Below are positions 9,897-41,978 of a DNA stretch of 64,000 bases, in pieces. This stretch comes from Betaproteobacteria bacterium (GTDB lineage Bacteria > Pseudomonadota > Gammaproteobacteria > Burkholderiales > SG8-41): contig JAKFUS010000029.1 of NCBI GenBank assembly GCA_021732605.1, forward strand, positions 89,300 to 153,299. Reading direction: 5' to 3'. Every line of letters begins with the position of its first letter. The first letter of the stretch is position 1. Both the position numbers and the translations under genes were made by a program. The notes below the pieces were generated by a model. That model was not told the DNA's origin. It made no database searches and saw only the letters and a program-made list of their open reading frames with translations.

Positions 9897-10889
9897 TCAG
9901 GGCTGGACGGGTGTCACCGGCGGCAACGGCAGACCGCGTTCCGCGGCTATGCGCCGCAGCCGGTCGGGATAATCCGAAATGATGCCGTCGACGCCGAAAT
10001 CGATCATGAGCGTGATGTCGCGCGGCTCGTTCACCGTCCATACCACCACTTTTAATCCGGCCTGCTGCGCCTCGCGCACGGTTTCGCGGGTGACATCGCC
10101 GAAATAAGGCGACCATACCGCGCCGCCTGCGGCCTTGATCATCCGCGGCACCGAGCCGGCATAACGGCTGACATGAAAATCCGCGGTCCACGGTGACGAG
10201 ACTTCACCCGCGCGGATATTGTCCTGCCAGGATTGCTGTGCGCTCAGGTACACCGTCGCAATCTGCGGCGCCTCCTGCTGCATCACCTGCAAGGTGCGCC
10301 AGTCGAAGGACTGGATGGTCACTCGCGATTCCAGTTTCTCGCTGCGGATCAGCGCAATCAGCACGCGCGCGAATTCCGCCGGGGCCAGCGTGAGTTGCGA
10401 TTGCTCCGGCGAAATCTTGGTTTCGATGCTGAAGCGCACGGTGCTGTTGCCGGCACGGCGCGCCAGGGCGAATACGTCGGTCAATCGCGGTATGCGGGTG
10501 CCGTCGACCGGCAGCTGTGCAGGGAAACGCTGCGCGTAAGCCGTTTGTGGCCGGATGCGCCCGACGTCGTATTGCTGGAGTTGTGCGAAGGTCAGGCTGT
10601 GGATGGCGATGTTGCTGCGATCCAGCCACTGCCCATCGGGCCCGCGCGTGATGGCCGGATTCAACGTCGCGTCGTGGCTGACCACCACCACACCGTCCTG
10701 GGTGACTGTGGTATCCAGTTCCAGCGTGGTGACGCCGATGCTCAAGGCCTGCGCGAAGGACGGCAAGGTGTTTTCCGGCAGCAGGCCGCGCGCGCCGCGA
10801 TGGCCCTGAAGATCAATGGCCTGCGCGATGCCTGCCATCACCAGCAGCGCTGCAGCAAAAAATATCGGGCAGATGACGATCGGGCGCAT
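9897..10889 (-). CDS. Secreted glycerophosphodiester phosphodiesterase family protein
   Basis: 330 aa with a signal peptide. The GDPD N-terminal signature HRGARGLLPENT is present. Confidence 0.85.
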   Translation of the reverse strand: MRPIVICPIFFAAALLVMAGIAQAIDLQGHRGARGLLPENTLPSFAQALSIGVTTLELDTTVTQDGVVVVSHDATLNPAITRGPDGQWLDRSNIAIHSLTFAQLQQYDVGRIRPQTAYAQRFPAQLPVDGTRIPRLTDVFALARRAGNSTVRFSIETKISPEQSQLTLAPAEFARVLIALIRSEKLESRVTIQSFDWRTLQVMQQEAPQIATVYLSAQQSWQDNIRAGEVSSPWTADFHVSRYAGSVPRMIKAAGGAVWSPYFGDVTRETVREAQQAGLKVVVWTVNEPRDITLMIDFGVDGIISDYPDRLRRIAAERGLPLPPVTPVQP

Positions 10890-10901
10890 GACGTAAACAT
10901 G

Positions 10902-11606
10902 CTACTCGCCGGCGGCGAGAAATGATGTCAGGCGCCAGCCGGCTTCGTATTTGCGGAAACAGGCGAGGTGTTCGAGCGGGCTGCGGATGTGTTCTTCCGG
11001 AATAAATCCGTCGCGCTCATTCGCGCTGATTTTCACCCACTTCTGTTTGATGTCGGCATCGCTGTCGGCGATCTCCCAGTCGATGACACGGACGATGGAC
11101 TGGCTGAGGCTGGCGAGAATGGTTGCACTGCCCGAGGGTGCGGCGCGCAGCGCGGTTTCCCGCGCGGTGATCGCGCCGTTGCCGTGCGGATCGGTGTTTT
11201 TCGGCCAGCGCGGCAACACGTAGGGGGCGCACAGGCTGCGCGGCATTTTTTCGTGGCTGTAATACGCCGCACCCAGGTGCAGTGCGCGCGGCAGTTCGCG
11301 CCACAGGGGGCTGTCTTCGGCATCCGGGTCCCACTGGCGGATGAATTCCTCGTGGCCGTTGGGCTGGCCGATGCCGTTGCGCACATTGCGATCGACAACG
11401 CCCAACACGAATTTTTTGTCACGCTGCTGCGTGGCGGTGAGCAGCCGGTCGCGGAAACGCGTCCAGGATTGGTCACCTGCGGCTTCATCACGCGGCGCGA
11501 ACACGCCATCCTGCGTTTTGGCCACGGGATTTTGCTGTCCCAGCGCCGGCACCGACAGCATCATGGCCAGCAGCAGTGCGTAACGCGTGTGGTGCGATCT
11601 GTTCAT
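10902..11606 (-). CDS. Secreted hypothetical protein with a C-terminal bacterial SH3-like segment
   Basis: 234 aa with a signal peptide (ALLLAMMLSVPALGQQ). The C-terminal stretch AITARETALRAAPSGSATILASLSQSIVRVIDWE...WVKISANERDGFIPEEHI looks SH3_3-like. Its ATG overlaps the upstream crotonase stop by 1 nt (TGATG). Confidence 0.6.
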   Translation of the reverse strand: MNRSHHTRYALLLAMMLSVPALGQQNPVAKTQDGVFAPRDEAAGDQSWTRFRDRLLTATQQRDKKFVLGVVDRNVRNGIGQPNGHEEFIRQWDPDAEDSPLWRELPRALHLGAAYYSHEKMPRSLCAPYVLPRWPKNTDPHGNGAITARETALRAAPSGSATILASLSQSIVRVIDWEIADSDADIKQKWVKISANERDGFIPEEHIRSPLEHLACFRKYEAGWRLTSFLAAGE

Positions 11607-12412
11607 CAGCGGCCCTTGAAATCGCCTTTGCGTTTGTCGAAAAACGCCTGCAGCGCTTCCTGATGGTCTTCGGTCTTGTGGCAGATCGCCTGGAATGCCG
11701 AACAGGTATCGAGGTGTTCGCTGAGGTGTTGGCGTTGCGCGAGCTTCAGCAAACGTTTTGCATAACGAATGGTCTGCGGTGGTTTGGCGGCAATTTTACC
11801 GGCCATTTTTTTCGCGGCGGCCATCAACTTCCCGGGTTCCGTGACTTCGAGCAGGATGCCCAGCTCTTTGGCTTCATCGGCTTTCAGCACACGGCCAGTG
11901 AGTGTCAGTTCCGCGGCGCGCTGGTAACCGAGCAACTGATTGAGGAACCAGGCACCGCCGTCGCCGGGAATAATGCCGAGATTGACGAAGGTTTCGCCGA
12001 ATTGCGCCTCGGTGGAGCCGATGCGGATGTCGCACATATTGGCAAGATCGAAGCCGGCACCGATCGCCGGGCCATTGACCGCAGCAATGATCGGAATATC
12101 GGTGTCCTGCATCGCCAATGGGATGCGCTGGATGCCGGTGCGGTAGGCGCGCTGCAGTTCATGGGCAGGTGCCTTGGAACGCTCACCCATGGTTTTGATA
12201 TTGCCGCCGGCCGAAAACGCGCTGCCGGCACCGGTCATGATCAGCACCGATGCGTCCATGCAGCTGTTCGCCCATTGCAGCGTGTTGACGATGTCCGACA
12301 CCAGGTCGGTACTGGTCAGCGCATTGCGCACGTCATCGCGATTGAAAGTGAGTGTGGCGACGCGACCGTCGAGTTCCAGCGTGGCATCGGTCAGTTTGGG
12401 CAAAGCGGTCAT
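11606..12412 (-). CDS. Enoyl-CoA hydratase/isomerase (crotonase) family protein
   Basis: 268 aa. The crotonase-fold pattern is present (LTFNRDDVRNAL, GAGSAFSAGGNI, AAVNGPAIGAGFDLA). Confidence 0.85.
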   Translation of the reverse strand: MTALPKLTDATLELDGRVATLTFNRDDVRNALTSTDLVSDIVNTLQWANSCMDASVLIMTGAGSAFSAGGNIKTMGERSKAPAHELQRAYRTGIQRIPLAMQDTDIPIIAAVNGPAIGAGFDLANMCDIRIGSTEAQFGETFVNLGIIPGDGGAWFLNQLLGYQRAAELTLTGRVLKADEAKELGILLEVTEPGKLMAAAKKMAGKIAAKPPQTIRYAKRLLKLAQRQHLSEHLDTCSAFQAICHKTEDHQEALQAFFDKRKGDFKGR

Positions 12413-12512: not shown

Positions 12513-13226
12513 TCAGGCGGCGGCCTGAGCGCGCAGGTGCTCGACTGCGGCGTTGCGTGAATCGATCACGCGCTGGCGCGCAATGCGTTCCGCGGTATCG
12601 CCGTCGCCATCATGAATGGCGCGTAACAGGGTTTGCCAGCTTTGCGCTGATTGGCGGCGGCGCTGCGGTGTCGACAGGCCGAGACGGGTATAACGAACGG
12701 TCTGCACCGCGAGTGAACCGAGGATGGCCTGCAGCCGCTGGTTGCCGGCGGCCTGGGTCAGTAGCCGGTTCAGCCGCAAGACAATCTCGATGTACTCGTC
12801 ACCGGGTCCAGGAACGGCAGCAATTTGCGCCAAGCGGGCAATATCCTTTTCCAGCACCGGGATCAGCTGTTCACGCTGCTTGCCTTCGGCGATCAGCCGG
12901 TCGCGCAGGCCGTTCAGCATCGCGCGGATATCGAAAATCTCGTTCACTTCCTCGATGGTCGGATTGGTGACCTGTGCGCCGCGCCGCGGCAGAATCATCA
13001 CCAGGCCTTCTTTTTCCAGCAGCCGCAGGGCTTCACGCACCGGTCCGCGGCTGACTTCGAATTCTTCGGCGACCGCCTGTTCCATCACGCGCTGGCCCGG
13101 AGTGTAGGCGCCGGACACGATGCGTTCCGATAATTTTGTGGCGATCTGTTCGGGCAGTGACTGGGTCAGCGATGCGCCACTGCGCAGCGGGGTCAACATG
13201 TCAGACAAGGCGTTGGTGAGATCCAT
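12513..13226 (-). CDS. GntR-family transcriptional regulator (FadR/FCD-type C-terminal domain)
   Basis: 237 aa. The N-terminal winged HTH is PGQRVMEQAVAEEFEVSRGPVREALRLLEKEGLV, and the C-terminal domain is all-helical. It is divergent from the carboxylase operon. Confidence 0.9.
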   Translation of the reverse strand: MDLTNALSDMLTPLRSGASLTQSLPEQIATKLSERIVSGAYTPGQRVMEQAVAEEFEVSRGPVREALRLLEKEGLVMILPRRGAQVTNPTIEEVNEIFDIRAMLNGLRDRLIAEGKQREQLIPVLEKDIARLAQIAAVPGPGDEYIEIVLRLNRLLTQAAGNQRLQAILGSLAVQTVRYTRLGLSTPQRRRQSAQSWQTLLRAIHDGDGDTAERIARQRVIDSRNAAVEHLRAQAAA

Positions 13227-13257
13227 GGGTGTTTCGCAGGTTGGTCAGTGTTGGAAC

Positions 13258-13323
13258 ACCATACGGAGGCTTTGTAATATTGTCAACAATCTTCTTGACA
13301 ACAATATGGCTCAAGAATAGCAT
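13258..13323. promoter_or_regulatory. Divergent promoter pair plus inverted repeat; candidate GntR operator
   Basis: TTGTCAA (13280-13286) and TTGACAA (13295-13301) form a 7-bp inverted repeat with an 8-nt spacer. The right arm is a perfect -35 TTGACA, with TAGCAT 17 nt downstream on the + strand. The left arm read on the minus strand is TTGACA, with TATGGT 17 nt downstream (13263-13258). A 12-bp palindrome ATTGTcaACAAT lies at 13279-13290. Confidence 0.45.
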
Positions 13324-13373
13324 CCTGCCACCTTTCCGATTCTTTTAGATGCCTACTCTCCAGGAGCTCTGTC

Positions 13374-13595
13374 ATGGCCCGTATTGAAGTCAAATCCGAA
13401 ATTACCGGCACCGTCTGGCAGCTCAAGGCCAAGCCCGGCGACAAAGTCGAGGCTGGCGACATACTGATCGTCATCGAGTCGATGAAAATGGAAATACCCG
13501 TGATCACCGAAGATGGTGGCACGGTGAAGGAAATCCTGGTCAAGGAAAAAGACCCGGTGGCTGAAGGTCAGGTGGTCGCCATTCTCGAAGAATAA
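13374..13595 (+). CDS. Biotin carboxyl carrier protein, bare biotinyl domain only (73 aa)
   Basis: Biotinylation motif ESMKME (canonical E-A-M-K-M). A GGAG Shine-Dalgarno (caGGAGctctgtcATG) precedes the start. Confidence 0.85.
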   Translation: MARIEVKSEITGTVWQLKAKPGDKVEAGDILIVIESMKMEIPVITEDGGTVKEILVKEKDPVAEGQVVAILEE

Positions 13596-13635
13596 GCAGC
13601 CGTGCCCGTTTTAAAAGCGAGCACACGCTTACAGC

Positions 13636-13667
13636 ATAACTAATTGTTTTTATTTATATTTTATAAG
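13636..13667 (+). repeat. AT-rich intergenic block, copy A (ATAACTAATTGTTTTTATTTATATTTTATAAG)
   Basis: The first 17 nt are identical to complement(45107..45123). It lies 11 nt upstream of the carboxyltransferase-1 ATG. Confidence 0.7.
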
Positions 13668-13678
13668 ACTCTGCGCCT

Positions 13679-15247
13679 ATGAGCTGGCAGCCTGAAATCG
13701 ATGAGCTGCACCACCGGCGCAAGCTGGCGGAGGCCTGCGGTGGCCCGGAGGCGGTGGCCAAACACCATGCCCAGGGCAAGCTCACGGTACGCGAGCGCAT
13801 CGTAACCCTGGTGGATTCCGGGTCCTTTCGCGAAGTCGGCAAACTCGCCGGCAAGGCCACTTATGACGCGACCGGAAAACTGACCGGCTTTGAACCCGCG
13901 CCGTATGTGATGGGCGTGGCCCGCATAGCCGGCCGTCCAGTGGCGATCGGCGGCGAGGATTACACCATCCGCGCCGGCACCGGATTCGGCAGCGACCGGC
14001 GCAAGGGCGGGCAGGGCGGCTTCATCGAAGACCTTGCCTGGGAGTACCGCATTCCGCTGGTCAATCTGATCGACGGCACCGGCGGCACGGTCAACACCGC
14101 CAAGCGCAAGGGTTACACCGTGGTGCCGGGTTACGGCCAGGACGGCGTCGAACGGTCGGTCGATCTGCTTGGCATCGTGCCTGTCGTATCCGCCGTCATG
14201 GGTACCACGGCGGGCGGTCCATCGATGCGCGCGATCCTGTCGCACTGGTCAATCATGGTCAAAGGCACCGGACAGATTTTTGCTGCAGGTCCGCCGGTGG
14301 TCGAACGCGCCTTCGGCGAAAAGCTGCACAAGGATGAATTGGGCGGCACCGCGGTCGCGGTCGATACCGCCGGCACCATCGATAACGTCGCGGAAAACGA
14401 ACAGGACTGTTTTGAGCAGATCCGCCGTTTCCTGTCGTACATGCCGCAAAACGTGTGGGAACTGCCGCCGGTGGTAAACAGCGGCGACCCGGTGGACCGT
14501 TGCGAAGACGCGCTGGCGAGCATCGTGCCGCGCTCCAATCGTCAGGCCTACAACATGAAAAAGCTGGTCGGCATGATCGTCGATTGCGACAGCCTGTTTG
14601 AAATCCAGCCGACTTTCGGCCGCGCCATCATCACCGCGCTGGCACGCATGAACGGCAAGGTCGTCGGCATCATCGCCAGCAATCCGATGGTCGGCGGCAT
14701 CATGGATGTCAAAGCGGCGCGCAAGCAGGGGCACTTCACGGAGCTCTGCGACATGTTCAATATCCCGGTAATTCTGTTCGCCGACATCCCGGGCCTGATG
14801 GTCGGCCGTGAATCCGAAGCCGACGCGATCCTGCGCGAAGGCGTGCGCGCGCGTTACATTGCGCTGCAGTCGCGGGTGCCGATGTTCTCGGTCATCGTGC
14901 GCAAATGTTACGGCGTCGCCGGTGGCGGCTTCATCGACCGCGGCGGACTCAATTTCAAGATTGCCTGGCCTTCCGCCGAATGGGGTTCACTGCCGGTCGA
15001 AGGCGGCGTCAAGGCGGCCTATCGCCGCGAAATCGAAAGTGCTGCGGATCCGGTGGCGCGCGAACGTGAAATCGAAACCGAACTGAAACAGCTCGCCTCA
15101 CCATTCCGCACCGCTGAAGCCTTTGCGGTGGAAGACGTCATCGACCCGCGCGAGACGCGACCTTATCTGTGCCAGTTCATTGACTCTTTGCAAGGTCGGC
15201 TCAGTAGCCAGCTCGGTCCCAAGCTGCGTGCCGGTGTGCGGCCTTAG
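13679..15247 (+). CDS. Acyl-CoA carboxylase carboxyltransferase subunit, paralogue 1 (PccB/AccD5-like, N and C halves both present)
   Basis: 522 aa. The layout follows the carboxyl_transferase family (KLTVRERIVTLVDSGSFREVG..., GGEDYTIRAGT, later GIIASNP). Confidence 0.9.
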   Translation: MSWQPEIDELHHRRKLAEACGGPEAVAKHHAQGKLTVRERIVTLVDSGSFREVGKLAGKATYDATGKLTGFEPAPYVMGVARIAGRPVAIGGEDYTIRAGTGFGSDRRKGGQGGFIEDLAWEYRIPLVNLIDGTGGTVNTAKRKGYTVVPGYGQDGVERSVDLLGIVPVVSAVMGTTAGGPSMRAILSHWSIMVKGTGQIFAAGPPVVERAFGEKLHKDELGGTAVAVDTAGTIDNVAENEQDCFEQIRRFLSYMPQNVWELPPVVNSGDPVDRCEDALASIVPRSNRQAYNMKKLVGMIVDCDSLFEIQPTFGRAIITALARMNGKVVGIIASNPMVGGIMDVKAARKQGHFTELCDMFNIPVILFADIPGLMVGRESEADAILREGVRARYIALQSRVPMFSVIVRKCYGVAGGGFIDRGGLNFKIAWPSAEWGSLPVEGGVKAAYRREIESAADPVAREREIETELKQLASPFRTAEAFAVEDVIDPRETRPYLCQFIDSLQGRLSSQLGPKLRAGVRP

Positions 15248-15251
15248 TGGG

Positions 15252-15289
15252 AAAATTTAATAACTATTTGATTTAATTGGATATTTTAT
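15252..15289 (+). repeat. AT-rich intergenic block, copy B (contains ATAACTATTTGATTTAATTG)
   Basis: The 20-nt core at 15260-15279 is identical to complement(34004..34023). It ends 10 nt before the carboxyltransferase-2 ATG. Confidence 0.75.
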
Positions 15290-16825
15290 ATGGCATTCGA
15301 AGCATTGCTGCAGGAATACGAAGCCCGTCGCGCCAAGGCGCTGGCCGGTGGTGGCGAAGAAAAATACGCCAAGCGCACGGCGAAGGGCATCTGGAACGCG
15401 CGCCAGCGGATCGACTATCTGATGGACAAAGGTTCGTTCATCGAATCCGGGCTGTTTGGTTCTTCCGGTGTGTATGCCGAGCAGGAAGATGAAACCCAGA
15501 CCGACGGCAAACTCGCCGGTTTTGGCCGGATCAATGACCGCGATGTGTGTCTGGTGGTCAATGACTTCACGGTGAAGGGTGCATCGACCTCGGCGACCAA
15601 CGGCAAAAAAATTGCGCACATGAAACGCGCCGCCACCGAACGCGGCATGCCGCTGGTGCTGATCGGCGAATCCACTGGCGCGCGTCTGCCCGATGCGATG
15701 GGCTCGCGTGGCATGGGTTTGCTGCTGGGTAACGACAACACGCAATTCCGTCGCTTGCGCGAAGTGCCGATGGCAGCCGCAGCATTTGGTCCGTCCTTCG
15801 GTTCCTCGACTTGGCTGATGTGCCAATCCGATTTTGCAGTGATGCACAAAAGCGCAATCATGGCGGTGTCCAGCCCGGGGCTGGTGTCGATGGCGCTGGG
15901 TGAAAAAGTCGCCGCAGAAGATCTGGGCGGCTGGCGTCTGCATGCCGAAACCACCGGCCTGATCGATCAGTTTGCCGACACCGAGGAAGAGGTGTTCGAC
16001 CTGATCAAACAATTCCTCGCCTACATGCCCAGCCACCACAAGGAAGCGCCGCCCGATGCACCGGTGCCCGCGGGTTCCGGCGCCGACATGGCCAAGGTGT
16101 TCGACATCCTGCCCGAAAGCCGAACGCAGGTGTATGACATGAAGCGCGTGATCAAATGCATTATCGACAAGGATTCGCTGCTCGAACTGAAACCGCGTTT
16201 CGGCAAAAGTGCAGTCACCGGTCTCGCGCGCCTCGGTGGCAAGACCGTCGGCATCATCGCCAACAACCCGCTGCACCGCGGCGGCGCGCTGGACGCTGAT
16301 GCCTGCCGCAAGCTCGTCGATTTCATTGTGTTGTGTGATTCCTTCAATATTCCCTTCGTGATGCTGGTCGACACGCCCGGTTTCCAGATCGGTACCGAAG
16401 CCGAACGCGCCGGTGCGCCGGGCAAGATCATGAACTTCATGAATGCGATGACCCTGGTCACCGTGCCGCATCTGACGGTGATCGTGCGCAAGAGTTATGG
16501 CCGCGCTTATGTCTGCATGGGCGGCGGTCGCCACTCCGACGAAGTCGCGGCATGGCCGACGGCAGAAATCAGTTTCATGAGCCCCGATTTCGCCACCAAG
16601 ATCGTACACGGCGTCGGTGTCGGCGAACCCGGCTTTGAAGAGGCGCTGGCCAACATCCGCAAGGGGGCTGACGTTTGGGGCCTGGCCGCAGTGTATGCCG
16701 CGCAGTCAGTGATCAAGCCGCAGGATACCCGCGAGTACCTGATTCGTATGTTCGATGTTTACAAATTGCGCATGACCAAGGGTGTGGGGCAGCACCTGAT
16801 GCGCTCCTGGCCTACCAGTTATTAG
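15290..16825 (+). CDS. Acyl-CoA carboxylase carboxyltransferase subunit, paralogue 2
   Basis: 511 aa and the same family as the preceding gene (RQRIDYLMDKGSFIESG, VVNDFTVKGAST, GIIANNP), but clearly divergent from it. Confidence 0.9.
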   Translation: MAFEALLQEYEARRAKALAGGGEEKYAKRTAKGIWNARQRIDYLMDKGSFIESGLFGSSGVYAEQEDETQTDGKLAGFGRINDRDVCLVVNDFTVKGASTSATNGKKIAHMKRAATERGMPLVLIGESTGARLPDAMGSRGMGLLLGNDNTQFRRLREVPMAAAAFGPSFGSSTWLMCQSDFAVMHKSAIMAVSSPGLVSMALGEKVAAEDLGGWRLHAETTGLIDQFADTEEEVFDLIKQFLAYMPSHHKEAPPDAPVPAGSGADMAKVFDILPESRTQVYDMKRVIKCIIDKDSLLELKPRFGKSAVTGLARLGGKTVGIIANNPLHRGGALDADACRKLVDFIVLCDSFNIPFVMLVDTPGFQIGTEAERAGAPGKIMNFMNAMTLVTVPHLTVIVRKSYGRAYVCMGGGRHSDEVAAWPTAEISFMSPDFATKIVHGVGVGEPGFEEALANIRKGADVWGLAAVYAAQSVIKPQDTREYLIRMFDVYKLRMTKGVGQHLMRSWPTSY

Positions 16826-16827
16826 AA

Positions 16828-16916
16828 GCGGTGATTGGTGACTGGTAATTGGTAAATGGGAAACCCCCACCACCAATTACCAGTTACCAGTTACCAGTTA
16901 CCAGTCACCCATCAAC
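16828..16916. repeat. Opposed heptamer arrays forming an imperfect hairpin (YTGGTRA x3-4 facing TYACCAR x6)
   Basis: The left arm is TTGGTGA CTGGTAA TTGGTAA (16835-16855). The right arm is CCACCAA followed by TTACCAG x4 (16877-16904) and then TCACCCA. The arms are reverse complements, and the right arm carries extra units. Confidence 0.8.
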
Positions 16917-16930
16917 AAAGCCTGACTCCA

Positions 16931-18280
16931 ATGTTCAACAAAGTCCTAGTCGCCAATCGCGGCGCCGTTGCCGCCCGTGTTCTGCGTGCGTTGAACGCGA
17001 TGAAAATTCCGGCGGTCGCCGTGTATTCCGAAGCCGATGCCGGTGCGCCTTACCTGGAAATGGCCAGTGAGACCTACGCCATTGGCCCGGCACCTGCGCG
17101 CGAGAGTTATCTCAATCAGGAGCTGATCGTTGATGTGCTGCGCAAATCGAAAGCTGACGGCTTGCATCCCGGTTACGGTTTTCTGTCGGAGAATTCAGCG
17201 TTCGCACAAAAAGTGATCGATGCAGGTTCGCATTTCATCGGCCCGTCGCCGAAATGGATCGATGCCATGGGCCATAAGACCCGCGCCCGCGACATTGCCG
17301 CGCAGTACGGCATGCCGATGTCAGAGGGCTCCGCTGTATTGCCCGATGACAATGACGCCATTCTCGCTGCAGCACGAAAAATCGGCTTTCCGGTGCTGGT
17401 GAAGCCGGCCGGTGGCGGTGGCGGTATTGGCATGTTGCCGGCCAAGGATGAAAGCGAACTGCTGGGCGCTGTAGAGCGTTCGCGCTCCATGGCCAGCCGC
17501 GGTTTCGGTACAGCCGAAGTCTATCTCGAAAAACTGATCGAACGCCCGCGCCATGTCGAATTCCAGATCCTCGGCGACACTCATGGAAGCGCCATGCATT
17601 TGTTCGAGCGTGACTGTTCGACCCAGCGCCGCAACCAGAAGGTCATCGAAGAAGCCCCGGGGCCGCTGATTCCGCGCGACAAGGCGGTGGCCGTCGCCGA
17701 TCAGATCGCCGGGATTATGCGCAGCATGGGTTACGACAACATCGGCACTGTCGAAATGCTGCTCGGCGCTGACGGCACCTTCAGCTTCCTTGAAATGAAC
17801 ACCCGCCTGCAGGTGGAACACGGCGTGACCGAGGAAGTCACTGGTGTGGATCTGGTGCGCGCGCAGATCCGTTCTGCCGCTGGCGAAAAACTCGCCGACA
17901 TCCTGCCGGGCAAACCAGAAATCAAGGGCCATGCCATACAGGCGCGGGTGTATGCCGAAGATCCGAAAAACTTTTTCCCCTCGCCGGGAAAACTGACGGT
18001 GTTCCGGCCACCGCAAGGTGAGGGCATTCGCGTCGATACCGGCTATGCCGAAGGCCGCGATGTGACGCCGCATTACGATCCGATGATTGCCAAGGTCATC
18101 GTGCGCGGTGCGACACGCGAGGCGGCGATTGATCAATTGATTACAGCGCTGGAAGCCTTCGAAATCCAGGGCCTGAAAAACAACATCCCGGCTGTCATCA
18201 ACATCCTGCGTTCCGAGCCGTTCCGGGCAGGACGTGTGCACACCGGCATCATCAGCGAAGTCACCGGCAGAAAAGCATGA
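16931..18280 (+). CDS. Biotin carboxylase, stand-alone (AccC-like)
   Basis: I use the internal ATG at 16931 (MFNKVLVANRGAVAARVLRAL...), which is the canonical biotin carboxylase N-terminus. The track ORF from 16856 would read through the heptamer repeat. The glycine-rich loop GGGGGIGM is present. Confidence 0.9.
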   Translation: MFNKVLVANRGAVAARVLRALNAMKIPAVAVYSEADAGAPYLEMASETYAIGPAPARESYLNQELIVDVLRKSKADGLHPGYGFLSENSAFAQKVIDAGSHFIGPSPKWIDAMGHKTRARDIAAQYGMPMSEGSAVLPDDNDAILAAARKIGFPVLVKPAGGGGGIGMLPAKDESELLGAVERSRSMASRGFGTAEVYLEKLIERPRHVEFQILGDTHGSAMHLFERDCSTQRRNQKVIEEAPGPLIPRDKAVAVADQIAGIMRSMGYDNIGTVEMLLGADGTFSFLEMNTRLQVEHGVTEEVTGVDLVRAQIRSAAGEKLADILPGKPEIKGHAIQARVYAEDPKNFFPSPGKLTVFRPPQGEGIRVDTGYAEGRDVTPHYDPMIAKVIVRGATREAAIDQLITALEAFEIQGLKNNIPAVINILRSEPFRAGRVHTGIISEVTGRKA

Positions 18281-18299
18281 AAACGAGTGTAAAAACAGC

Positions 18300-19004
18300 A
18301 TGAACAAACCCAATGAAAACCCGGTGGCTGCTGCGCGCAGCGCCGGGCGCAATGCGCTCGATGAAAGTGCCGGCAAACAATTGTTGTCCAGCTACGGCAT
18401 CAGCGTACCGCAGTCGCGCGTGGCTAAAGGCGTCGCCGAAGTCGATGCAGTGATGAACGGCCTGAAGACGCCAGTCGTGGTCAAAGTCATGTCGCCCGAC
18501 ATCCTGCATAAAAGCGATGCCGGCGGTGTAAAGATAAATTTGCGTTCTGCGGCTGAAGTCAAAGCCGCAATCGAAGGCATGCTCAATGCGCCGAAGATCA
18601 AAGGAGCGCGCATCGACGGCTTTCTGATCGAGGAAATGGCGCCGACAGGTCATGAACTGGTGATCGGTGGTTTGCGCGATCCGCAGTTTGGCCCGCTGGT
18701 GATGGTGGGACTGGGCGGCATCTTTGTCGAAATACTCAAAGACGTTTCGTTCCGGCTGTGCCCGATTACCCGCATCGATGCCGAGGAAATGCTCGCCGAA
18801 CTCAAAGGCGCGGCCATCCTCAAGGGTGCGCGTGGCACCAAGCCGGCGTCGATCGAAGCGATCATTGATGTGCTGCTGAAAGTGGGCGGTGACAATGGTT
18901 TGCTGATGCAGCACGCGGCCGACATCAGCGAAGCCGACATCAACCCGCTGATCGTGTCCGATACCGCGGCGGTTGCCGTCGATGCACGTTTTATTCTGGG
19001 CTGA
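18300..19004 (+). CDS. ADP-forming acyl-CoA synthetase, ATP-grasp (beta-like) subunit
   Basis: I use the internal ATG at 18300 (MNKPNENP...). The pattern AGKQLLSSYGISVPQS...VVVKVMSPDILHKSDAGGVKINL is typical of the ATP-grasp_5 domain of NDP-forming acetate/acyl-CoA ligases. Confidence 0.8.
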   Translation: MNKPNENPVAAARSAGRNALDESAGKQLLSSYGISVPQSRVAKGVAEVDAVMNGLKTPVVVKVMSPDILHKSDAGGVKINLRSAAEVKAAIEGMLNAPKIKGARIDGFLIEEMAPTGHELVIGGLRDPQFGPLVMVGLGGIFVEILKDVSFRLCPITRIDAEEMLAELKGAAILKGARGTKPASIEAIIDVLLKVGGDNGLLMQHAADISEADINPLIVSDTAAVAVDARFILG

Positions 19005-19006
19005 GC

Positions 19007-20461
19007 ATGACCACGAAAATAAGAATGACCATCCTCGAAGAATTCACTCCCCTGTTCGCGCCGAAAACCGTAGCCGTGGTCGGCGCCTCGACCAAGGGCA
19101 ATGCGCTGCCCAATGTCTTCATCCGCCGCATTCGCGAATTTGGTTTCACCGGCGACATTTATCCGATTCATCCCGCGGCTGCGGAAATCGATGGTCTGAA
19201 GGCGTACAAAAGCCTCGCCGATACGCCGAAGCCCGTGGATTACGCCTATATCGCCGTGTCCGGCGCGCAGATTCCAGCAATGCTGTCGGCGGCGAAAGGC
19301 CATGTGCGTTTTGCGCAGGTGGTATCCAGCGGTTTCGGTGAAGTCGAAGAAGGCAAAAACCTGCAGGCTGAACTGGCGGATGCCGCGCGCGCCGGCGGCA
19401 TGCGTCTGCTCGGCCCCAACTGTCTGGGTATTTACACGCCGCGCGGCCATGTGACCTTTACTGAAATCGGTCCCAAGGAAGTCGGCCCGGTCGGCATCGT
19501 GTCGCAAAGCGGCGGTCTCGGCACCGACATCATCCGACGCGGTATGTCGCGCGGACTGAAGTTCTCCGGACTGGTTACCGTCGGCAACTGCGCCGATGTC
19601 ACGCCCTCAGATTTGCTGGAGTTCTACCTTGCTGACCCGCAGACCAAGGTGATCGGCATGTACATCGAAACCGCCAAAGACGGTCGCCGCTTGTTCGACA
19701 TCCTGCGTAACGCCCGCGCGGTGAAACCGGTAGTGATCCTCAAGGGCGGACGTACTCAGCAGGGCCTCGCAGCCGCAGCGTCGCATACCGGTTCGCTGGC
19801 AGGGGATGATCGCGTGTGGGTCGCACTGGCACGGCAGACCGGTTGCATGCTGGTCGATACGCTGGATAATTTCATCGACACGCTGCTGATATTCCAGACC
19901 CTGACGCCGCGCCCGCAACGCGCGACCAAAAAAGTCGTGCTGTTCGGCAATGGTGGCGGCACCAGCGTGCTGGCCACCGACTATTACTCGCGGCTGGACC
20001 TCGACGTCACGCCGTTCGCGCAAAACGTGATTGACGCGCTGGCAGAACTCAAACTGCCGCCGGGCACCAGCATCACCAATCCGGTCGATTGCCCCGTGGG
20101 TACGCTGCAGCAGGACGATGGCCGCGTCGCCGAAAAAATCCTCGATATCATCTACAGTAAGGGCAAACCCGAAGCCCTGGTGATGCATCTGAATCTGTCG
20201 GCCTTTGTCGGCCGCACCAAACCCGAGGTGCTGGACAACCTGGTCGCAGCCGCGATGCGTGTGCAGGAAAAGTATCCCGACCAGTCGCATTTCATCCTGG
20301 TGCTGCGTTCTGATGGTGAACCGACACTGGAAGCGCGCAAGCGAGAATTCCGCGACAAGGCGGTGGCGCTGGGCGTGCCGGTGTACGACGAGATGGCCAA
20401 TGCCGGACACGCCGTTGCGGCGCTGGCGACCTTCGAGCGCTTCAAGGCCGCGCGCGCTTGA
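19007..20461 (+). CDS. ADP-forming acyl-CoA synthetase, CoA-binding/ligase (alpha-like) subunit
   Basis: 484 aa. The CoA-binding Rossmann start is PKTVAVVGAS, followed by a succinyl-CoA-ligase-like flavodoxin domain (GIVSQSGGLG). The gap to the upstream gene is 2 nt. Confidence 0.8.
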   Translation: MTTKIRMTILEEFTPLFAPKTVAVVGASTKGNALPNVFIRRIREFGFTGDIYPIHPAAAEIDGLKAYKSLADTPKPVDYAYIAVSGAQIPAMLSAAKGHVRFAQVVSSGFGEVEEGKNLQAELADAARAGGMRLLGPNCLGIYTPRGHVTFTEIGPKEVGPVGIVSQSGGLGTDIIRRGMSRGLKFSGLVTVGNCADVTPSDLLEFYLADPQTKVIGMYIETAKDGRRLFDILRNARAVKPVVILKGGRTQQGLAAAASHTGSLAGDDRVWVALARQTGCMLVDTLDNFIDTLLIFQTLTPRPQRATKKVVLFGNGGGTSVLATDYYSRLDLDVTPFAQNVIDALAELKLPPGTSITNPVDCPVGTLQQDDGRVAEKILDIIYSKGKPEALVMHLNLSAFVGRTKPEVLDNLVAAAMRVQEKYPDQSHFILVLRSDGEPTLEARKREFRDKAVALGVPVYDEMANAGHAVAALATFERFKAARA

Positions 20462-20470
20462 TTTTCAACA

Positions 20471-21670
20471 ATGGCCTACCAGCATCAGTTCCGTGCCATC
20501 GCTTATCCGCTACGGCTTTACAGCGGCAAAGACGCGCTGAAAAACCTGCAGGCGGAACTGAAGCGCTTGAAGTCGCAAAAAGCATTCATTGTTTGCGGGC
20601 GCAGCGTATCGCGTAAAACAAATCTGATCGACCGCATCGCCAAAATCCTCGGCCCGGCCTACGCCGGCCGTTATGACGAAATCGAAAAAGACACCACGGT
20701 GGCCTCGGTGCAGGCTGCAGCAACGGCTGCGCGCGCAGCGCAGGCCGACCTGCTGATCGGTGTAGGCGCCGGCAGCGTGATTCAGGGCACACGCGTCGTT
20801 GCGGTGCTGCTCGCCGAAAAGGCGCCGGTCGATCAACTCATTACCCAATACCCGGAACACGGCGCAGCGATCAGTCCCAGGCTGCTGGCACCCAAGCTGC
20901 CGATCATTAATGTGCTGACCGCGGCAACCACGGCGCAGAATCGTGCGGGCTCGGCGGTGAAGGATCCGGCGCGACCCCACCGCATGGAGTTTTTTGATCC
21001 CAAAACCCGGCCTGTTGCGCTGTTCTGGGATGAAGAAGCACTGCTCACCGCGCCCGTGTCTCTGGCGCGCACGACAGGAACGTCGGTGTTCTGGCGCTCG
21101 CTGATGAACCTCGGCGCGCCAAACATGACACCGTTATCTGAAGGCGACCGGCTGCAGGCCTTCCGTCTTGCACGCGGTGCGCTGACCCGCATGAGTGATC
21201 CGCTGGATGCGGGCGCCCGCGTCGAAATGTGCGCCGCCGCCTTCCTGCAGAACCGCGATGCCGATGACGGCGGCGCGCTGACTGAAAAACACTGGCCGGC
21301 ACGCGTGACCTATGCGCTGGCCACGGCCTTATTCAATTTGCACGGCCATGTCGGGCAGGGTGAAGCCAACTCGGCGCTGACCGCCACGGTAATCCGCCAT
21401 TTCGGCGCGCGCGATCCCGAGGCGATGGCTCTGATCGCGCAGGCGTTTGACATCACCGACAGCCGTCCCGCGTATATACGGGCCGCCGACGCCGTCGAAC
21501 GGGCTTTCCTGCAGGCTGGTATGCCGGTGAAACTGCGAGAACTCAATATCCCCCGCGACAGCCTCGCGACGGTCCTCGAAAACTCGCTGAAGAATTTCAA
21601 CGCCGATCCCAGTCGCGAATTCCTGCACGAGCGGGATGCGCTGATGGCGGCGCTGGACGCCGCCTGGTAA
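20471..21670 (+). CDS. Iron-containing alcohol dehydrogenase / maleylacetate reductase family protein
   Basis: 399 aa. The N-terminal Fe-ADH pattern is present (FIVCGRSVS...ADLLIGVGAGSVIQGTR). Confidence 0.75.
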   Translation: MAYQHQFRAIAYPLRLYSGKDALKNLQAELKRLKSQKAFIVCGRSVSRKTNLIDRIAKILGPAYAGRYDEIEKDTTVASVQAAATAARAAQADLLIGVGAGSVIQGTRVVAVLLAEKAPVDQLITQYPEHGAAISPRLLAPKLPIINVLTAATTAQNRAGSAVKDPARPHRMEFFDPKTRPVALFWDEEALLTAPVSLARTTGTSVFWRSLMNLGAPNMTPLSEGDRLQAFRLARGALTRMSDPLDAGARVEMCAAAFLQNRDADDGGALTEKHWPARVTYALATALFNLHGHVGQGEANSALTATVIRHFGARDPEAMALIAQAFDITDSRPAYIRAADAVERAFLQAGMPVKLRELNIPRDSLATVLENSLKNFNADPSREFLHERDALMAALDAAW

Positions 21671-22452: not shown

Positions 22453-22625
22453 AAGTTTAGAAGCACTAGCGCTGCTGATCGCGGCGTCGGCCCTGCTCTG
22501 GTAAGGTCAGCCCTGCCGCTTACAAAGCCTTACACATTGTTACCGGAATGCGGTCGATTCTGCAGGGAGCCCGGCGTTAGTCTGCAGGTGGGAATTGCCC
22601 CACCATTCATCCAGGGAGATTTAAC

Positions 22626-22958
22626 ATGAACATCAAGGCCATCATTGCTGCTGCGGTCATTGCCGCCGTGCCCGCGCTTTCTTATGCGCAGACCAAGGAT
22701 CCCGCTGCCACCCCCGGCATCGACAAGCGTCAGGAAATCCAGCAGAAGCGCATCGATCAGGGCGTGCAGTCGGGTGAGCTGAACAAGCGCGAAGCGGCCC
22801 GCCTGGAACGGCATCAGGCCGGTATCAACAAAATGGAAGACAAGGCAAAAGCCGACGGCACCGTGACCAAAAAAGAGCGCGCGAAAATCCACCATGCCCA
22901 GAACAATGAAAGCCAGCGCATCCATCGCCAGAAACACGATCGTCAGAAAGCGAAATAA
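22626..22958 (+). CDS. Secreted K/Q/R-rich helical hypothetical protein
   Basis: 110 aa with a signal peptide ending AVPALSYAQ. It has repeated charged heptad-like segments, a GGAG Shine-Dalgarno and a strong terminator downstream. Confidence 0.65.
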   Translation: MNIKAIIAAAVIAAVPALSYAQTKDPAATPGIDKRQEIQQKRIDQGVQSGELNKREAARLERHQAGINKMEDKAKADGTVTKKERAKIHHAQNNESQRIHRQKHDRQKAK

Positions 22959-22980
22959 ATCCCGCCGCTGATCAACCGCA

Positions 22981-23007
22981 ACCGCCCCGCGAGGGGCGGT
23001 TTTTTTG
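22981..23007 (+). terminator. Rho-independent terminator
   Basis: Stem ACCGCCCC / GGGGCGGT with loop GCGA, followed by TTTTTTT. Confidence 0.8.
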
Positions 23008-23062
23008 CGTCTGCAGTGTCGGCTACAATGCCCGCGGTTCACAAACAACAGCGGATGACATC

Positions 23063-23449
23063 ATGGATACCCTGCAGGCCGGCATGACCCTTAGCGTCGA
23101 ACGCGAAGTCAGCGAAGCGATGACCACACAGCGCGGCGACTACAAGGTGTTTTCGACACCGTCGATGGTGCAGTTCTGCGAAAGCGCAGCAGGACAGCTG
23201 GTCGCACCGCACCTGAAGCCGGGACAGGGTCAGGTTGGCATGATCGTCACCATCCGCCACCTGGGGCCGACGCCGATGGGCAAGCGGGTGCGCGCCGAGG
23301 TTGAGCTGACCGGCATCGACCGCCGCCGGCTGAGCTTCAAGATCAAGGTGTTTGACGATGTGGAGCAGGTCGGCGAATGTGATCACGACCGCTTCATCGT
23401 CGACCTCGACAAGTACCAGGCCAAATTGAAGAAAAAAATCGAAGGCTGA
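23063..23449 (+). CDS. Hotdog-fold acyl-CoA thioesterase (FlK-like family)
   Basis: 128 aa. The pattern VFSTPSMVQFCESAA followed by a long central-helix region is typical of this small thioesterase family. Confidence 0.75.
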   Translation: MDTLQAGMTLSVEREVSEAMTTQRGDYKVFSTPSMVQFCESAAGQLVAPHLKPGQGQVGMIVTIRHLGPTPMGKRVRAEVELTGIDRRRLSFKIKVFDDVEQVGECDHDRFIVDLDKYQAKLKKKIEG

Positions 23450-23467
23450 TCTTCGCCCGCGAATATA

Positions 23468-23498
23468 CTGTAACAATTTGTTTTTATTAATTATTTTG
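23468..23498 (+). repeat. AT-rich intergenic block, degenerate copy G (GTAACAATTTGTTTTTATTAATTATTTTGTC)
   Basis: It shares the ...ATTTGTTTTTATT... core with copies A and F. It lies between two convergent stop codons. Confidence 0.4.
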
Positions 23499-24342
23499 TC
23501 GTAACCTGCAGTCGCCATCGCCGCGATTCAACCAGCGTCAGAAATTCATCGGTGATGCGGTTGAAGTGCGCCGGTTCCTCCAGATTGACTACATGGCCGG
23601 TCGCCGGCACCACGCTGAGGCGCGCTGCCGGGCAAGTGCGCTTGATGAACAGCCCGGCGTCGAGTGCGCTTTCATCCTCATCACCAACCACCACATGCAG
23701 CGGTACTGTCAGCTGACGCAGGCCGCGCTCCAGGCTCTGGATCGCCGGGCGGCGCATTTGTATGCCACGCAGCGTGTTGGCGTGGCCGAGACCGGAATGC
23801 TCGCAGAAACGCAGCCAGAATTCACGCCAGGCGCGCGGATTTTTGTGCAGCAACTGCACGCGGTTGGGCGCATTGCGATAACTTTTTGCGATGTCCTGCA
23901 ATGGCAGAGTTTCAAACTCGCTGGCCCGGATCGCGGTGTTGCGTAAAAACTCTTTCCTTTTTTGCGGATCGGAACCGGACCCCGCGCCGATCAGCGTCAG
24001 TGACTGCGCCATGCGCGGGTAATGCAGGCCGAAATGCAGTGTGGCGGCAGCACCCATCGAACAGCCGATGATGTGCGCCTTGCGCAGGCCGAGGTGGCGC
24101 ATCACCGCGGCGATGTCGTCGGTGGCGATGGCCTGTGAATAGTTTGTCCAGGATTTCGGCACGCCCGACGGCGGATAGCCACGCGCATTAAACGCGATGC
24201 AGCGGTAGCGGCGGCTGAAGTGCCGGATCTGGTCTTCCCAGCTGCGCAGATCGCCTGAAAATTCATGGACGAAAACGATGGGCGTGCCGCGGCCGGTGTC
24301 CTCGTAGTAAAGCCGTACATTCTTTGATTCGGCATAGGGCAT
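23491..24342 (-). CDS. Alpha/beta-fold hydrolase
   Basis: 283 aa. It has the oxyanion-hole motif VFVHEF and the nucleophile elbow GCSMG. Confidence 0.85.
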   Translation of the reverse strand: MPYAESKNVRLYYEDTGRGTPIVFVHEFSGDLRSWEDQIRHFSRRYRCIAFNARGYPPSGVPKSWTNYSQAIATDDIAAVMRHLGLRKAHIIGCSMGAAATLHFGLHYPRMAQSLTLIGAGSGSDPQKRKEFLRNTAIRASEFETLPLQDIAKSYRNAPNRVQLLHKNPRAWREFWLRFCEHSGLGHANTLRGIQMRRPAIQSLERGLRQLTVPLHVVVGDEDESALDAGLFIKRTCPAARLSVVPATGHVVNLEEPAHFNRITDEFLTLVESRRWRLQVTTK

Positions 24343-35980: not shown

Positions 35981-36036
35981 ATGTGCGGCTCATTCTGTGC
36001 GGCTCATTTTGCGCGACGCATTTTGCGCGGCTCAAC
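35981..36036. repeat. Four tandem degenerate 14-mers (ATGTGCGGCTCATT / CTGTGCGGCTCATT / TTGCGCGACGCATT / TTGCGCGGCTCAAC)
   Basis: Read directly in the 76-nt spacer between the PrpD-family stop and the Bug start. The last unit overlaps the stop codon. Confidence 0.7.
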
Positions 36037-39541: not shown

Positions 39542-39564
39542 GAAGGTCAAGGTCAAAAGCGTTT

Positions 39565-40836: not shown

Positions 40837-40969
40837 GATATGAAACTTTGGCAAAAACTGCGGGTTGGAGAGTCGTGTATTTTACCGCGTGCTGCTCAGT
40901 GGGTCAGCCTTTCAGCCTCATCCGCATGCTGGAGCAAATGCGGGCATGGCCTGTGGCAGAACGCCGGTA

Positions 40970-41944: not shown

Positions 41945-41978
41945 GGATTCCTCGCCGGGGTTTTGGTCGGCAGCGCGA

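Follow-up and report, generated by a model that had tools for sequence, protein, structure and literature searches.

A conserved biotin carboxylase operon with two divergent carboxyltransferases and its own ADP-forming CoA ligase in uncultured Burkholderiales

The 64,000-nucleotide stretch analyzed here (contig JAKFUS010000029.1, positions 89,300 to 153,299 of the forward strand, from assembly GCA_021732605.1 of a Betaproteobacteria bacterium; hereafter the window) carries seven plus-strand genes in a row behind a divergent gene for a GntR/FCD-type regulator. They encode a stand-alone biotin carboxyl carrier protein (BCCP), two paralogous carboxyltransferases (CT1 and CT2), a biotin carboxylase (BC), the two subunits of a split NDP-forming acyl-CoA synthetase and a protein of the iron-containing alcohol dehydrogenase (Fe-ADH) superfamily (Table 1). 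This gene list had been proposed from the sequence alone (the original prediction), and open reading frame (ORF) calls, Pfam and NCBIfam confirm each of the seven genes and the regulator gene in its place. From the BCCP gene to the Fe-ADH-like gene, the intergenic gaps are 83, 42, 105, 19, 2 and 9 nt.

The individual gene products also proved to be as they had been described. The 73-aa carrier is a biotinyl domain matching PF00364, with the carrier lysine, Lys38, in the motif ESMKME. The PF01039 match extends over profile positions 1-477 of 493 in CT1 and 4-476 of 493 in CT2, nearly the full profile in both, and each protein therefore holds the N and C halves of a carboxyltransferase, as foreseen. 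All three BC domains were matched. The BC reading frame opens at 16856; however, homology begins only at Met26 (ATG 16931) and a hairpin in the CT2-BC spacer covers ATG 16856, so that we place the start at 16931, which gives the predicted length of 449 aa. The frame of the ATP-grasp subunit opens at 18234, and its gene most likely starts at ATG 18300. The presence of a split ADP-forming CoA ligase in the operon is borne out by its Pfam domains (PF13549, PF13380 and PF13607) and by the motifs SHTGSLAG, from residue 259 of the alpha subunit (with His260), and HKSDAGGV in the beta subunit (HKSD at residue 92 of the ORF), which we take to be the catalytic histidine motifs of NDP-forming acyl-CoA synthetases.

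Table 1. Positions in the window of the genes and elements of the cluster and of the neighboring crotonase gene
Feature	Position	Strand	Evidence
Crotonase-family enzyme, downstream of gntR	11606..12412	-	PF00378 168.8 bits; NF006699 317.7 bits (below cut-off 354)
GntR regulator with FCD ligand domain	12513..13226	-	PF00392 69.9 bits; PF07729 55.9 bits
Operator-like block, TTGTA..ATTGTCAACAATCTTCTTGACAACAA	13272..13304	.	Invariant in 38 aligned loci; overlaps both divergent -35 hexamers
Stand-alone BCCP, 73 aa, ESMKME with Lys38	13374..13595	+	PF00364 59.5 bits; NF004547 81.5 bits (above cut-off 75)
CT1, full-length acyl-CoA-type carboxyltransferase, 522 aa	13679..15247	+	PF01039 304 bits
CT2, second full-length carboxyltransferase, 511 aa	15290..16825	+	PF01039 314 bits
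Intercistronic hairpin with TTACCAG heptamer repeats, CT2-BC spacer	16826..16927	+	-48.3 kcal/mol, z = -7.5
BC, 449 aa	16931..18280	+	PF00289, PF02786, PF02785; NF006367 507.8 bits (below cut-off 597)
ATP-grasp_5 (beta) subunit, NDP-forming acyl-CoA synthetase	18300..19004	+	PF13549 238 bits; HKSDAGGV
CoA_binding_2 + Succ_CoA_lig (alpha) subunit, same synthetase	19007..20461	+	PF13380, PF13607; TIGR02717 319 bits (below cut-off 567)
Fe-ADH-superfamily protein	20471..21670	+	PF00465 103 bits

The cluster is a real and conserved operon, beyond what chance would produce. A genome scan with CT1 yielded 80 loci, all in metagenome-assembled genomes (MAGs) and mostly from Burkholderiales or 'Betaproteobacteria', and tblastn of the window proteins against these loci found the order gntR (minus strand), BCCP, CT1, CT2, BC, ligase beta, ligase alpha and Fe-ADH-like gene kept in about 45 contigs of uncultured Burkholderiales, so that the check on neighborhood conservation called for in the original prediction came out in its favor. 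Word-indexed protein searches returned relatives at 79% identity or more only. CT1 and CT2 are both present in 32 of the 33 orthologous loci that have enough downstream sequence. In locus L033, CT1 runs straight into BC and the cluster is otherwise full, with CT2 missing; locus L058 is devoid of BC and the synthetase, with the Fe-ADH-like gene still there. The GntR gene is kept beside the cluster in most loci and the crotonase gene in roughly half, and the carboxylase genes are accompanied most faithfully by the Fe-ADH-like gene, with linkage to the cluster seen in more than 20 loci.

Among the 47 loci with both carboxyltransferases, the two genes adjoin as in the window in 28, and 19 have an insertion between them. 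Twelve of these insertions consist of a TctC gene and a family III CoA-transferase gene (CaiB), and seven of a sulfite-oxidase (SUOX)-family molybdoenzyme gene, devoid of a Tat signal, with the electron-transfer genes EtfB/EtfA; the insertion in locus L057 combines EtfBA with TctC and CaiB. Insertions with the SUOX-type molybdoenzyme and EtfB/EtfA are found in L041 (11008-14227) and L060 (11607-16291), and also in L038, L049, L054, L055, L061 and L057. Cytoplasmic SUOX-type enzymes are not usually paired with an electron-transfer flavoprotein, and the combination may be a clue to the pathway's chemistry.

The two carboxyltransferases of the window belong to two deep clades that, by sequence comparison, fall in no characterized enzyme group. 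CT1 and CT2 are 30.6% identical to each other, and each is 30-34% identical to five beta subunits of propionyl-CoA carboxylase (PCC) and acetyl-CoA carboxylase (ACC), references which share 52-61% among themselves across bacteria and archaea. In a neighbor-joining tree of 40 sequences with 200 bootstraps, in which the references were PccB 1XNY, 1VRG, 1X0U, 7W5U and S. meliloti PccB, the CT1-type proteins, the CT2-type proteins and the references formed three clades, each with 100% support. The enzymes of the 3-methylcrotonyl-CoA (MCC), geranyl-CoA (GCC) and glutaconyl-CoA (Gcd) types stood outside the tree and were judged by bit scores only. In a search of solved structures, the best matches were beta subunits of the PCC/ACC/Mmd type (264-289 bits for CT1 and 244-278 bits for CT2, the latter 244-271 bits with the PCC/ACC chains), followed by MCC/GCC beta subunits (129-174 and 128-156 bits, respectively) and, more weakly, glutaconyl-CoA decarboxylase (72-92 bits). 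NCBIfam holds no specific model that matches either protein, the best being TIGR01117 at 330 bits for CT1 and 316 bits for CT2 against a cut-off of 998.8. We therefore rejected CT1 and CT2 as PccB orthologues, given their position outside the PCC/ACC clade, their low identity and their TIGR01117 scores far under the cut-off, and rejected them as MCC/GCC beta subunits on bit scores alone, which lie well under those of PCC-type chains. The claim that these carboxyltransferases are not orthologues of PCC, ACC, MCC or GCC subunits thus holds, for MCC and GCC by bit score only, and a placement of either protein as a close orthologue within carboxylases whose substrate is known, the finding that was to count against novelty, was looked for and not found, with MCC, GCC and Gcd again assessed by bit scores only.

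CT1-type proteins also occur in other architectures. An exhaustive search through 1.84 billion cluster representatives uncovered a family of CT1 relatives, made up of a few dozen clusters (at 50% identity) that lie at 39-51% identity to CT1, after which the scores dropped to the level of PCC. CT1-type domains at 39-47% identity are fused to their partners as BC-BCCP-CT (P0243, P0252 and P0265, about 1100 aa) and as BCCP-CT (P0254, 632 aa), and CT1-type proteins are therefore genuine components of biotin enzymes that are able to work without CT2. These fusions are distinct from 4RCN, a long-chain acyl-CoA carboxylase of solved structure that reaches only 186 bits with CT1.

The active sites of the two proteins differ from the references and from each other, as seen in an alignment of 83 CT1-type, 54 CT2-type and five reference sequences (PccB numbering). 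At the N-domain oxyanion pair G182-G183, the references read CAGGA, CT1 TAGG, with the AGG oxyanion glycines retained, and CT2 SFGSS; at G419-A420-Y421-D422 of the C domain, the references read GGAYD, CT1 GVAGG and CT2 GRAYV; and the motif NDSGGARIQEG of the references becomes IDGTGGTVNTAK in CT1 and GESTGARLPDAMG in CT2. Each of these variants is conserved within its own clade, which suggests that CT1 and CT2 are both under selection and that neither is visibly dead; the idea that one of them is a degenerate, catalytically dead paralogue is for the same reason unsupported. Since the oxyanion contacts are made by the backbone, the substitutions do not decide activity. A further difference concerns the ligand. 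In the structure of the mycobacterial carboxylase LCC, Phe462 of AccD5 stacks on the adenine of CoA and Arg465 contacts its ribose (PMC13012033). In the block aligned with these residues (..il.rr in the references), CT1 keeps the arginine (AAYRR) and CT2 has lost it (IVHGV). CT1 thus looks like a CoA binder, and the ligand contacts of CT2 appear to differ.

Plasmid searches also led to relatives in cultured bacteria, in which the carboxyltransferases are annotated only as 'carboxyl transferase domain-containing protein'. Plasmid pBB2 of Cupriavidus necator N-1 has the order GntR-TctC-CaiB-BCCP-CT1-type (63%)-MaoC-TctC-CT2-type (54%)-BC. Plasmid 3 of Variovorax sp. PBL-E5 carries two modules in which CT1-type and CT2-type genes stand together with CaiB and TctC, one of them with BC and BCCP and the other with BCCP only, as well as a separate GntR-TctC-CaiB-CT1-type (63%) unit which has no adjoining CT2-type gene and which is about 6 kb from the closest BC and BCCP genes. 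A Sulfitobacter plasmid combines a CitE-like lyase, a tripartite tricarboxylate transporter, an enolase-like protein, a CT2-type protein (62%), a fused ADP-forming synthetase, BC, BCCP, BioY and MaoC. Further afield, Rhodococcus qingshengii groups a CT1-type protein (44%) with two AMP-binding ligases, a thioesterase, BCCP and BC, and Diaphorobacter groups a CT1-type protein with DUF35 and thiolase, 3-oxoacid CoA-transferase A/B, BC, BCCP, a short-chain dehydrogenase/reductase (SDR) and MaoC.

Paralogous units are found in the MAGs as well. L062 (7185-13057) and L039 have a unit composed of a thiamine-pyrophosphate (TPP) enzyme like Xsc, TctC, a second CT1 (CT1', 82%) and ligase alpha alone, with no ligase beta, BC or BCCP nearby; the TPP enzyme resembles sulfoacetaldehyde acetyltransferase at 414 bits, which is under the cut-off. 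In L007 (16768-21566), the place of the Fe-ADH gene, directly after the main cluster, is taken by a second module of LysR (minus strand), SDR, BCCP', ligase alpha' and CT2' (49%); this module was fully read in L007, and matches to its BCCP' and ligase alpha' were seen in L002 and to its BCCP' in L019. Finally, a CT1-type gene (60%) lies beside a fused synthetase gene in L066.

A CoA-activating enzyme is encoded in every relative cluster examined, and its class varies between clusters. The ADP-forming synthetase is found in the window, in Sulfitobacter and in L066; CaiB in 12 MAG loci, C. necator N-1 and Variovorax; AMP-binding ligases in Rhodococcus; and a 3-oxoacid CoA-transferase in Diaphorobacter. 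This recurrence of the function through different enzymes is the strongest evidence that formation of a CoA ester is coupled to the carboxyltransferase. To our knowledge, all characterized PF01039 carboxyltransferases act on thioesters. The suggestion of a substrate other than a CoA ester is accordingly left unsupported, as both carboxyltransferases are PF01039 proteins and all the relative clusters examined encode CoA activation. TctC genes, which are abundant in the window, are likewise embedded in many of the relative clusters. As leads to the substrate, the companions point to dicarboxylates (TctC, CaiB), to enoyl-CoA chemistry (MaoC, CitE-like lyase, crotonase) and to sulfur-containing acids (the molybdoenzyme and the Xsc-like enzyme). 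An organosulfonate, which the Xsc-like TPP enzyme, the sulfite-oxidase-family enzyme and a sulfate-exporter gene in relatives might bring to mind, is only a lead.

The spacer of 147 nt between gntR and the BCCP gene offers a probable site of control. When it was aligned from 38 loci, the 33-bp block at 13272-13304 was invariant while its flanks varied freely. The block holds the palindrome ATTGT-CA-ACAAT and a second, half-degenerate copy of the type ATTGT-NN-ACAAT, and palindromes of the GT-N-AC type are typical of GntR operators. Promoter-like sites lie at 13295-13323 on the plus strand and at 13286-13258 on the minus strand, and the block covers both -35 hexamers; the -10 element TAGCAT and an AGGAG ribosome-binding site are conserved as well. 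The features of a repressor-operator pair are thus present, namely a regulator with a winged helix-turn-helix and an FCD domain and a GT-N-AC-type palindrome at a divergent promoter. Control of the operon by GntR through this putative operator, part of the original prediction, is well supported by inference from a block that does not vary and lies over both -35 boxes.

A second element of possible regulatory meaning is the hairpin between CT2 and BC, which comprises 26 base pairs with a folding energy of -48.3 kcal/mol (z = -7.5). A strong hairpin stands at the equivalent position in each of 36 loci compared, with unrelated sequences, and T-runs follow several of them; the structure is thus kept without conservation of the sequence. 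It may serve as an attenuator or an element of mRNA stability which tunes or splits transcription.

For the synthetase, the equivalog models of NDP-forming enzymes all score far under their cut-offs (187-319 bits against 567-1300), and the best NCBIfam matches of the ligase halves include 3-hydroxypropionate (3HP)- and 4-hydroxybutyrate (4HB)-CoA ligases. Among solved structures, the Fe-ADH-like protein is closest, at 83 bits, to the C-terminal half of 9ldl, an 'aldehyde dehydrogenase family protein' of 886 aa, for whose PDB code a literature search gave unrelated matches only, and other solved Fe-ADHs reach at most 45 bits. In pairwise alignments of low identity to 9ldl_C and 8zwd_B, the canonical Asp ligand is replaced by Ser205, the first His by Arg209 and the later two His by Ala and Gly, and the nucleotide motif reads GAGS in place of GGGS. 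Ser205 and Arg209 are invariant in 30 orthologues. The AlphaFold2 model, built on a shallow alignment, reached a pLDDT of only 65, too low to check these replacements. The protein appears to be devoid of all four canonical metal ligands, and these replacements make a classical iron-dependent alcohol dehydrogenase unlikely. By analogy with maleylacetate reductases, it is probably a metal-independent reductase. Of the earlier description as a maleylacetate-reductase/Fe-ADH-like protein, membership in the Fe-ADH superfamily (PF00465) stands, whereas the maleylacetate-reductase flavor was not specifically confirmed.

The literature searched holds no description of this gene order or of an ADP-forming synthetase co-operonic with a biotin carboxylase, and no described pathway to which the order had already been assigned was found there. 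Several known systems resemble the cluster in part. With the beta subunits of PCC and ACC (S. coelicolor PccB 1XNY, T. maritima 1VRG and M. tuberculosis AccD5), CT1 and CT2 share the PF01039 fold, their length, the union of both halves in one chain and the need for BC and BCCP; the window differs in its two paralogues with altered motifs, its stand-alone BC with a minimal BCCP and its dedicated CoA ligase. The Liu/Atu pathways for 3-methylcrotonyl-CoA and geranyl-CoA follow a similar logic, in which an acid is activated and its CoA ester carboxylated, hydrated and cleaved, and relatives of the cluster carry MaoC and a CitE-like lyase where the window has a crotonase. However, the MCC and GCC enzymes have an alpha subunit that fuses BC to BCCP and one type of carboxyltransferase, and the window cluster has no lyase. 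The synthetase has the same domains, both histidine motifs and the same split alpha/beta arrangement as archaeal ADP-forming acyl-CoA synthetases and the thaumarchaeal 3HP/4HB-CoA ligases, although it scores far under all equivalog cut-offs of those models. As for the sodium-pumping decarboxylases (Mmd/Gcd/Oad), the Pfam matches of the cluster and its neighbors include no membrane beta subunit, and a BC is present.

Two further systems bear on the use of two carboxyltransferases. The mycobacterial LCC is an AccD4(2)AccD5(4) heterohexamer, structurally proven, whose two kinds of subunit differ in how they bind CoA, one of them tightly (PMC13012033), and which contradicts the statement in the original prediction that characterized acyl-CoA carboxylases use one carboxyltransferase type. 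The window resembles LCC in having two different PF01039 carboxyltransferases in one system, and the asymmetry of CT1 and CT2 at the arginine for the CoA ribose recalls that of AccD5 and AccD4. Unlike the window cluster, LCC has its BC and BCCP fused (AccA3), needs AccE, serves biosynthesis (mycolic acids) and is not organized with a CoA ligase gene. An AccE-type tether and a fused BC-BCCP are absent from the window cluster, where BC and BCCP are separate and no extra small gene lies inside. The second system, XccABC, had been invoked as a two-carboxyltransferase enzyme, and here the analogy fails, as the hydroxyacetophenone carboxylases Xcc, Hpe and Acv (HpeCBA, XccBCA, AcvCDE) have one BC, one BCCP and a single, PycB-like carboxyltransferase (PMC9618137; bioRxiv 10.1101/2022.04.28.489975). 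For the carboxyltransferase AcvE of SYK-6, the reported identities are 26% with PycB of pyruvate carboxylase and 55% with XccA (bioRxiv 10.1101/2022.04.28.489975); the labels xccA and xccC for the carboxyltransferase and the biotin carboxylase are used in opposite ways in that work and in Table 1 of PMC9618137. HpeCBA and XccBCA act on 4-phospho-acetophenones made by the kinase HpeHI, after which a phosphatase acts (PMC9618137), whereas the Pfam matches of the window cluster and its neighbors include no two-subunit kinase and no HAD phosphatase. The window shares with these catabolic systems the dependence on biotin, the separate genes for BC, BCCP and carboxyltransferase and a CoA-activating step in the pathway, and differs from them in its two PF01039 carboxyltransferases, a distinction drawn from the statements of those papers without direct sequence comparison.

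All of these observations suggest a dedicated, regulated biotin carboxylase module for an organic acid with its own ADP-forming CoA ligase, and gene content and synteny support this part of the original prediction. With a confidence just above even, we read the cluster as a GntR/FCD-regulated catabolic operon for the import of an acid, its activation with CoA, ATP-dependent carboxylation and subsequent hydration or reduction; the order of these steps, the direction of the reaction and the subunit composition are what we infer. The acid would probably enter through a tripartite tricarboxylate (TctC/Bug) system, and the split synthetase would make its CoA thioester, a step for which many relatives also have a family III CoA-transferase. 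The stand-alone BC would load CO2 from bicarbonate, at the expense of ATP, onto the 73-aa carrier, from which CT1 and CT2, joined in a mixed hexamer or forming one hexamer each with BC and BCCP in common, would pass it to the acyl-CoA. The carboxylated product could then be processed by the crotonase, and in relatives by the MaoC hydratase and the CitE-like lyase, while the Fe-ADH-family protein without metal ligands would probably act as a metal-independent reductase. Several points weigh against this reading. The window cluster contains no downstream mutase, epimerase, lyase or thiolase, and all close relatives are MAGs, from which no physiology can be drawn. The cluster is moreover plastic, as the loci without CT2 (L033) or without BC and synthetase (L058) demonstrate; the motifs of CT2 are non-canonical and its CoA-ribose arginine is absent, so that its ligand is uncertain; and the CT2-BC hairpin, terminator-like in some loci, could divide the seven genes into two transcripts.

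Whether CT1 and CT2 form a heteromer or two homomers is a matter of roughly even odds. The heteromeric core of the original prediction stands as a possibility, given their co-occurrence in 32 of 33 loci, and is weakened by the occurrence of each type alone. The probability that two independent homo-hexameric carboxyltransferases share one BC and one BCCP and act on two intermediates falls only a little short of even. The otherwise full cluster of L033 lacking CT2, the Sulfitobacter plasmid with only a CT2-type protein besides BC, BCCP and synthetase, the Variovorax GntR-TctC-CaiB-CT1-type unit, the single-chain BC-BCCP-CT1-type fusions and the example of mycobacterial AccA3, which serves several carboxyltransferases, all speak for such an arrangement, whereas the genes for CT1 and CT2 are adjacent, or parted only by accessory genes, in those 32 of 33 orthologous loci, the two types also appear together in the Cupriavidus and Variovorax modules, and LCC is a precedent for a carboxyltransferase heterohexamer (PMC13012033). 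A more specific proposal, that CT1 and CT2 form an obligate mixed hexamer which carboxylates a CoA ester new as a carboxylase substrate, for instance a dicarboxylyl- or sulfur-containing acyl-CoA, is doubtful though worth keeping in view; it takes its hints from the TctC and CaiB genes, or the SUOX-family molybdoenzyme and EtfAB genes, inserted between the carboxyltransferases in relatives.

The remaining explanations alter the chemistry. CT1 and CT2 could be divergent acetyl- or propionyl-CoA carboxyltransferases for assimilation of propionate or 3-hydroxypropionate, to which the neighboring genes would add nothing new. PCC/ACC beta subunits are indeed their best solved-structure matches. ADP-forming ligase, crotonase, Fe-ADH-family protein and carboxylase are also the enzyme families of the thaumarchaeal 3HP/4HB cycle, which the enzyme set of the window thus mirrors, and the ligase halves have 3HP- and 4HB-CoA ligases among their best NCBIfam matches. 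We nevertheless consider such ordinary short-chain enzymes unlikely in view of the 31-33% identity to references that share 52-61%, the separate clades with 100% support and the equivalog scores far under the cut-offs; in addition, the PrpD-like, aconitase-family and isocitrate-lyase/PEP-mutase-family genes already in the window resemble a set for handling propionate by way of methylcitrate, the vicinity offers neither an epimerase or mutase nor a reductase for malonyl-CoA or acryloyl-CoA, and the Fe-ADH-like protein is devoid of metal ligands. It is also conceivable that carboxylation comes first, its target being a keto acid or another carbonyl compound not bound to CoA, and that the resulting beta-keto acid is then activated by the ADP-forming ligase, as in the Xcc, Hpe and Acv systems. 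Hpe and Acv do set a precedent for the sequence of carboxylase, CoA ligase and cleavage, Diaphorobacter pairs a CT1-type protein with a 3-oxoacid CoA-transferase and a thiolase, and the superfamily of the last gene contains maleylacetate reductases. This order of events is nonetheless decidedly improbable, as the carboxyltransferase of those systems is single and PycB-like whereas those of the window are PF01039 proteins, the cluster has no kinase, phosphatase or thiolase, and CT1 retains the arginine that contacts CoA. Finally, the enzyme could decarboxylate a malonyl-type CoA ester, or shuttle CO2 through biotin from one acyl-CoA to another, with energy conserved by the synthetase. ADP-forming acyl-CoA synthetases are reversible, two different carboxyltransferases could serve donor and acceptor, and one source names relatives 'methylmalonyl-CoA decarboxylase alpha'. 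Such a decarboxylase or transcarboxylase is very improbable here, considering that a complete ATP-dependent BC is encoded, that the cluster has no membrane beta subunit of the sodium-pumping type and that genes for cytochrome c and its biogenesis indicate an aerobic genome context.

Beyond the seven genes, the minus-strand region 9897-12412 continues the gntR transcription direction with genes for the crotonase, a 234-aa protein and a GDPD-family phosphodiesterase; base 11606 belongs both to the stop of the crotonase gene and to the start of the one that follows, and gntR and these three genes appear to be co-transcribed. The crotonase is a possible member of the pathway. The 234-aa protein, which has no family match, and the GDPD protein both have signal peptides and no informative matches; they are probably unrelated and were set aside as clues to the substrate. 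This mixture of gntR, crotonase and two signal-peptide proteins is odd, yet it is conserved across MAG loci. On the other side of the cluster, a glutaredoxin-like gene that follows the Fe-ADH-like gene was left out because of its signal peptide, and the ORFs at 22530-23518 (minus strand) look spurious. Elsewhere the window abounds in TctC genes and clusters for organic acids, including acyl-CoA dehydrogenases and aconitase-family subunits, as is typical of Bug-rich Burkholderiales. A second ADP-forming synthetase, fused and 696 aa long, is encoded at 37466-39556 (minus strand), with PrpD-like, acyl-CoA dehydrogenase and TctC genes at 36032-37417 and 39682-42049, and this neighborhood looks like another acid-activating cluster. 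A gene for a C-5 cytosine DNA methylase (51553-52680) lies in a stretch, with the 52-54 kb region, where the G+C content, otherwise about 60%, falls to 51%; this could be a restriction-modification or mobile island.

Only a few biotin carboxylases have a known substrate, namely ACC, PCC, MCC, GCC, LCC, pyruvate carboxylase, urea carboxylase and the Xcc/Hpe type. Two deep and well-populated carboxyltransferase clades that are wired to CoA activation, and often to TctC, indicate that the catabolism of organic acids includes at least one carboxylation step still to be discovered. Because the cluster recurs in many metagenome bins from lakes, groundwater and soil, its substrate is likely to be a common environmental compound, and the cultured carriers, namely Cupriavidus necator N-1 with pBB2, the plasmids of linuron-degrading Variovorax and the Sulfitobacter plasmid, make the question directly testable. 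The operon is also a second possible case, this one outside Mycobacteriales, of a carboxylase with two different carboxyltransferases. If a mixed hexamer acting on a new CoA ester were to prove true, freshwater Burkholderiales, among which relatives of the cluster are widespread, would have a new catabolic pathway that consumes CO2.

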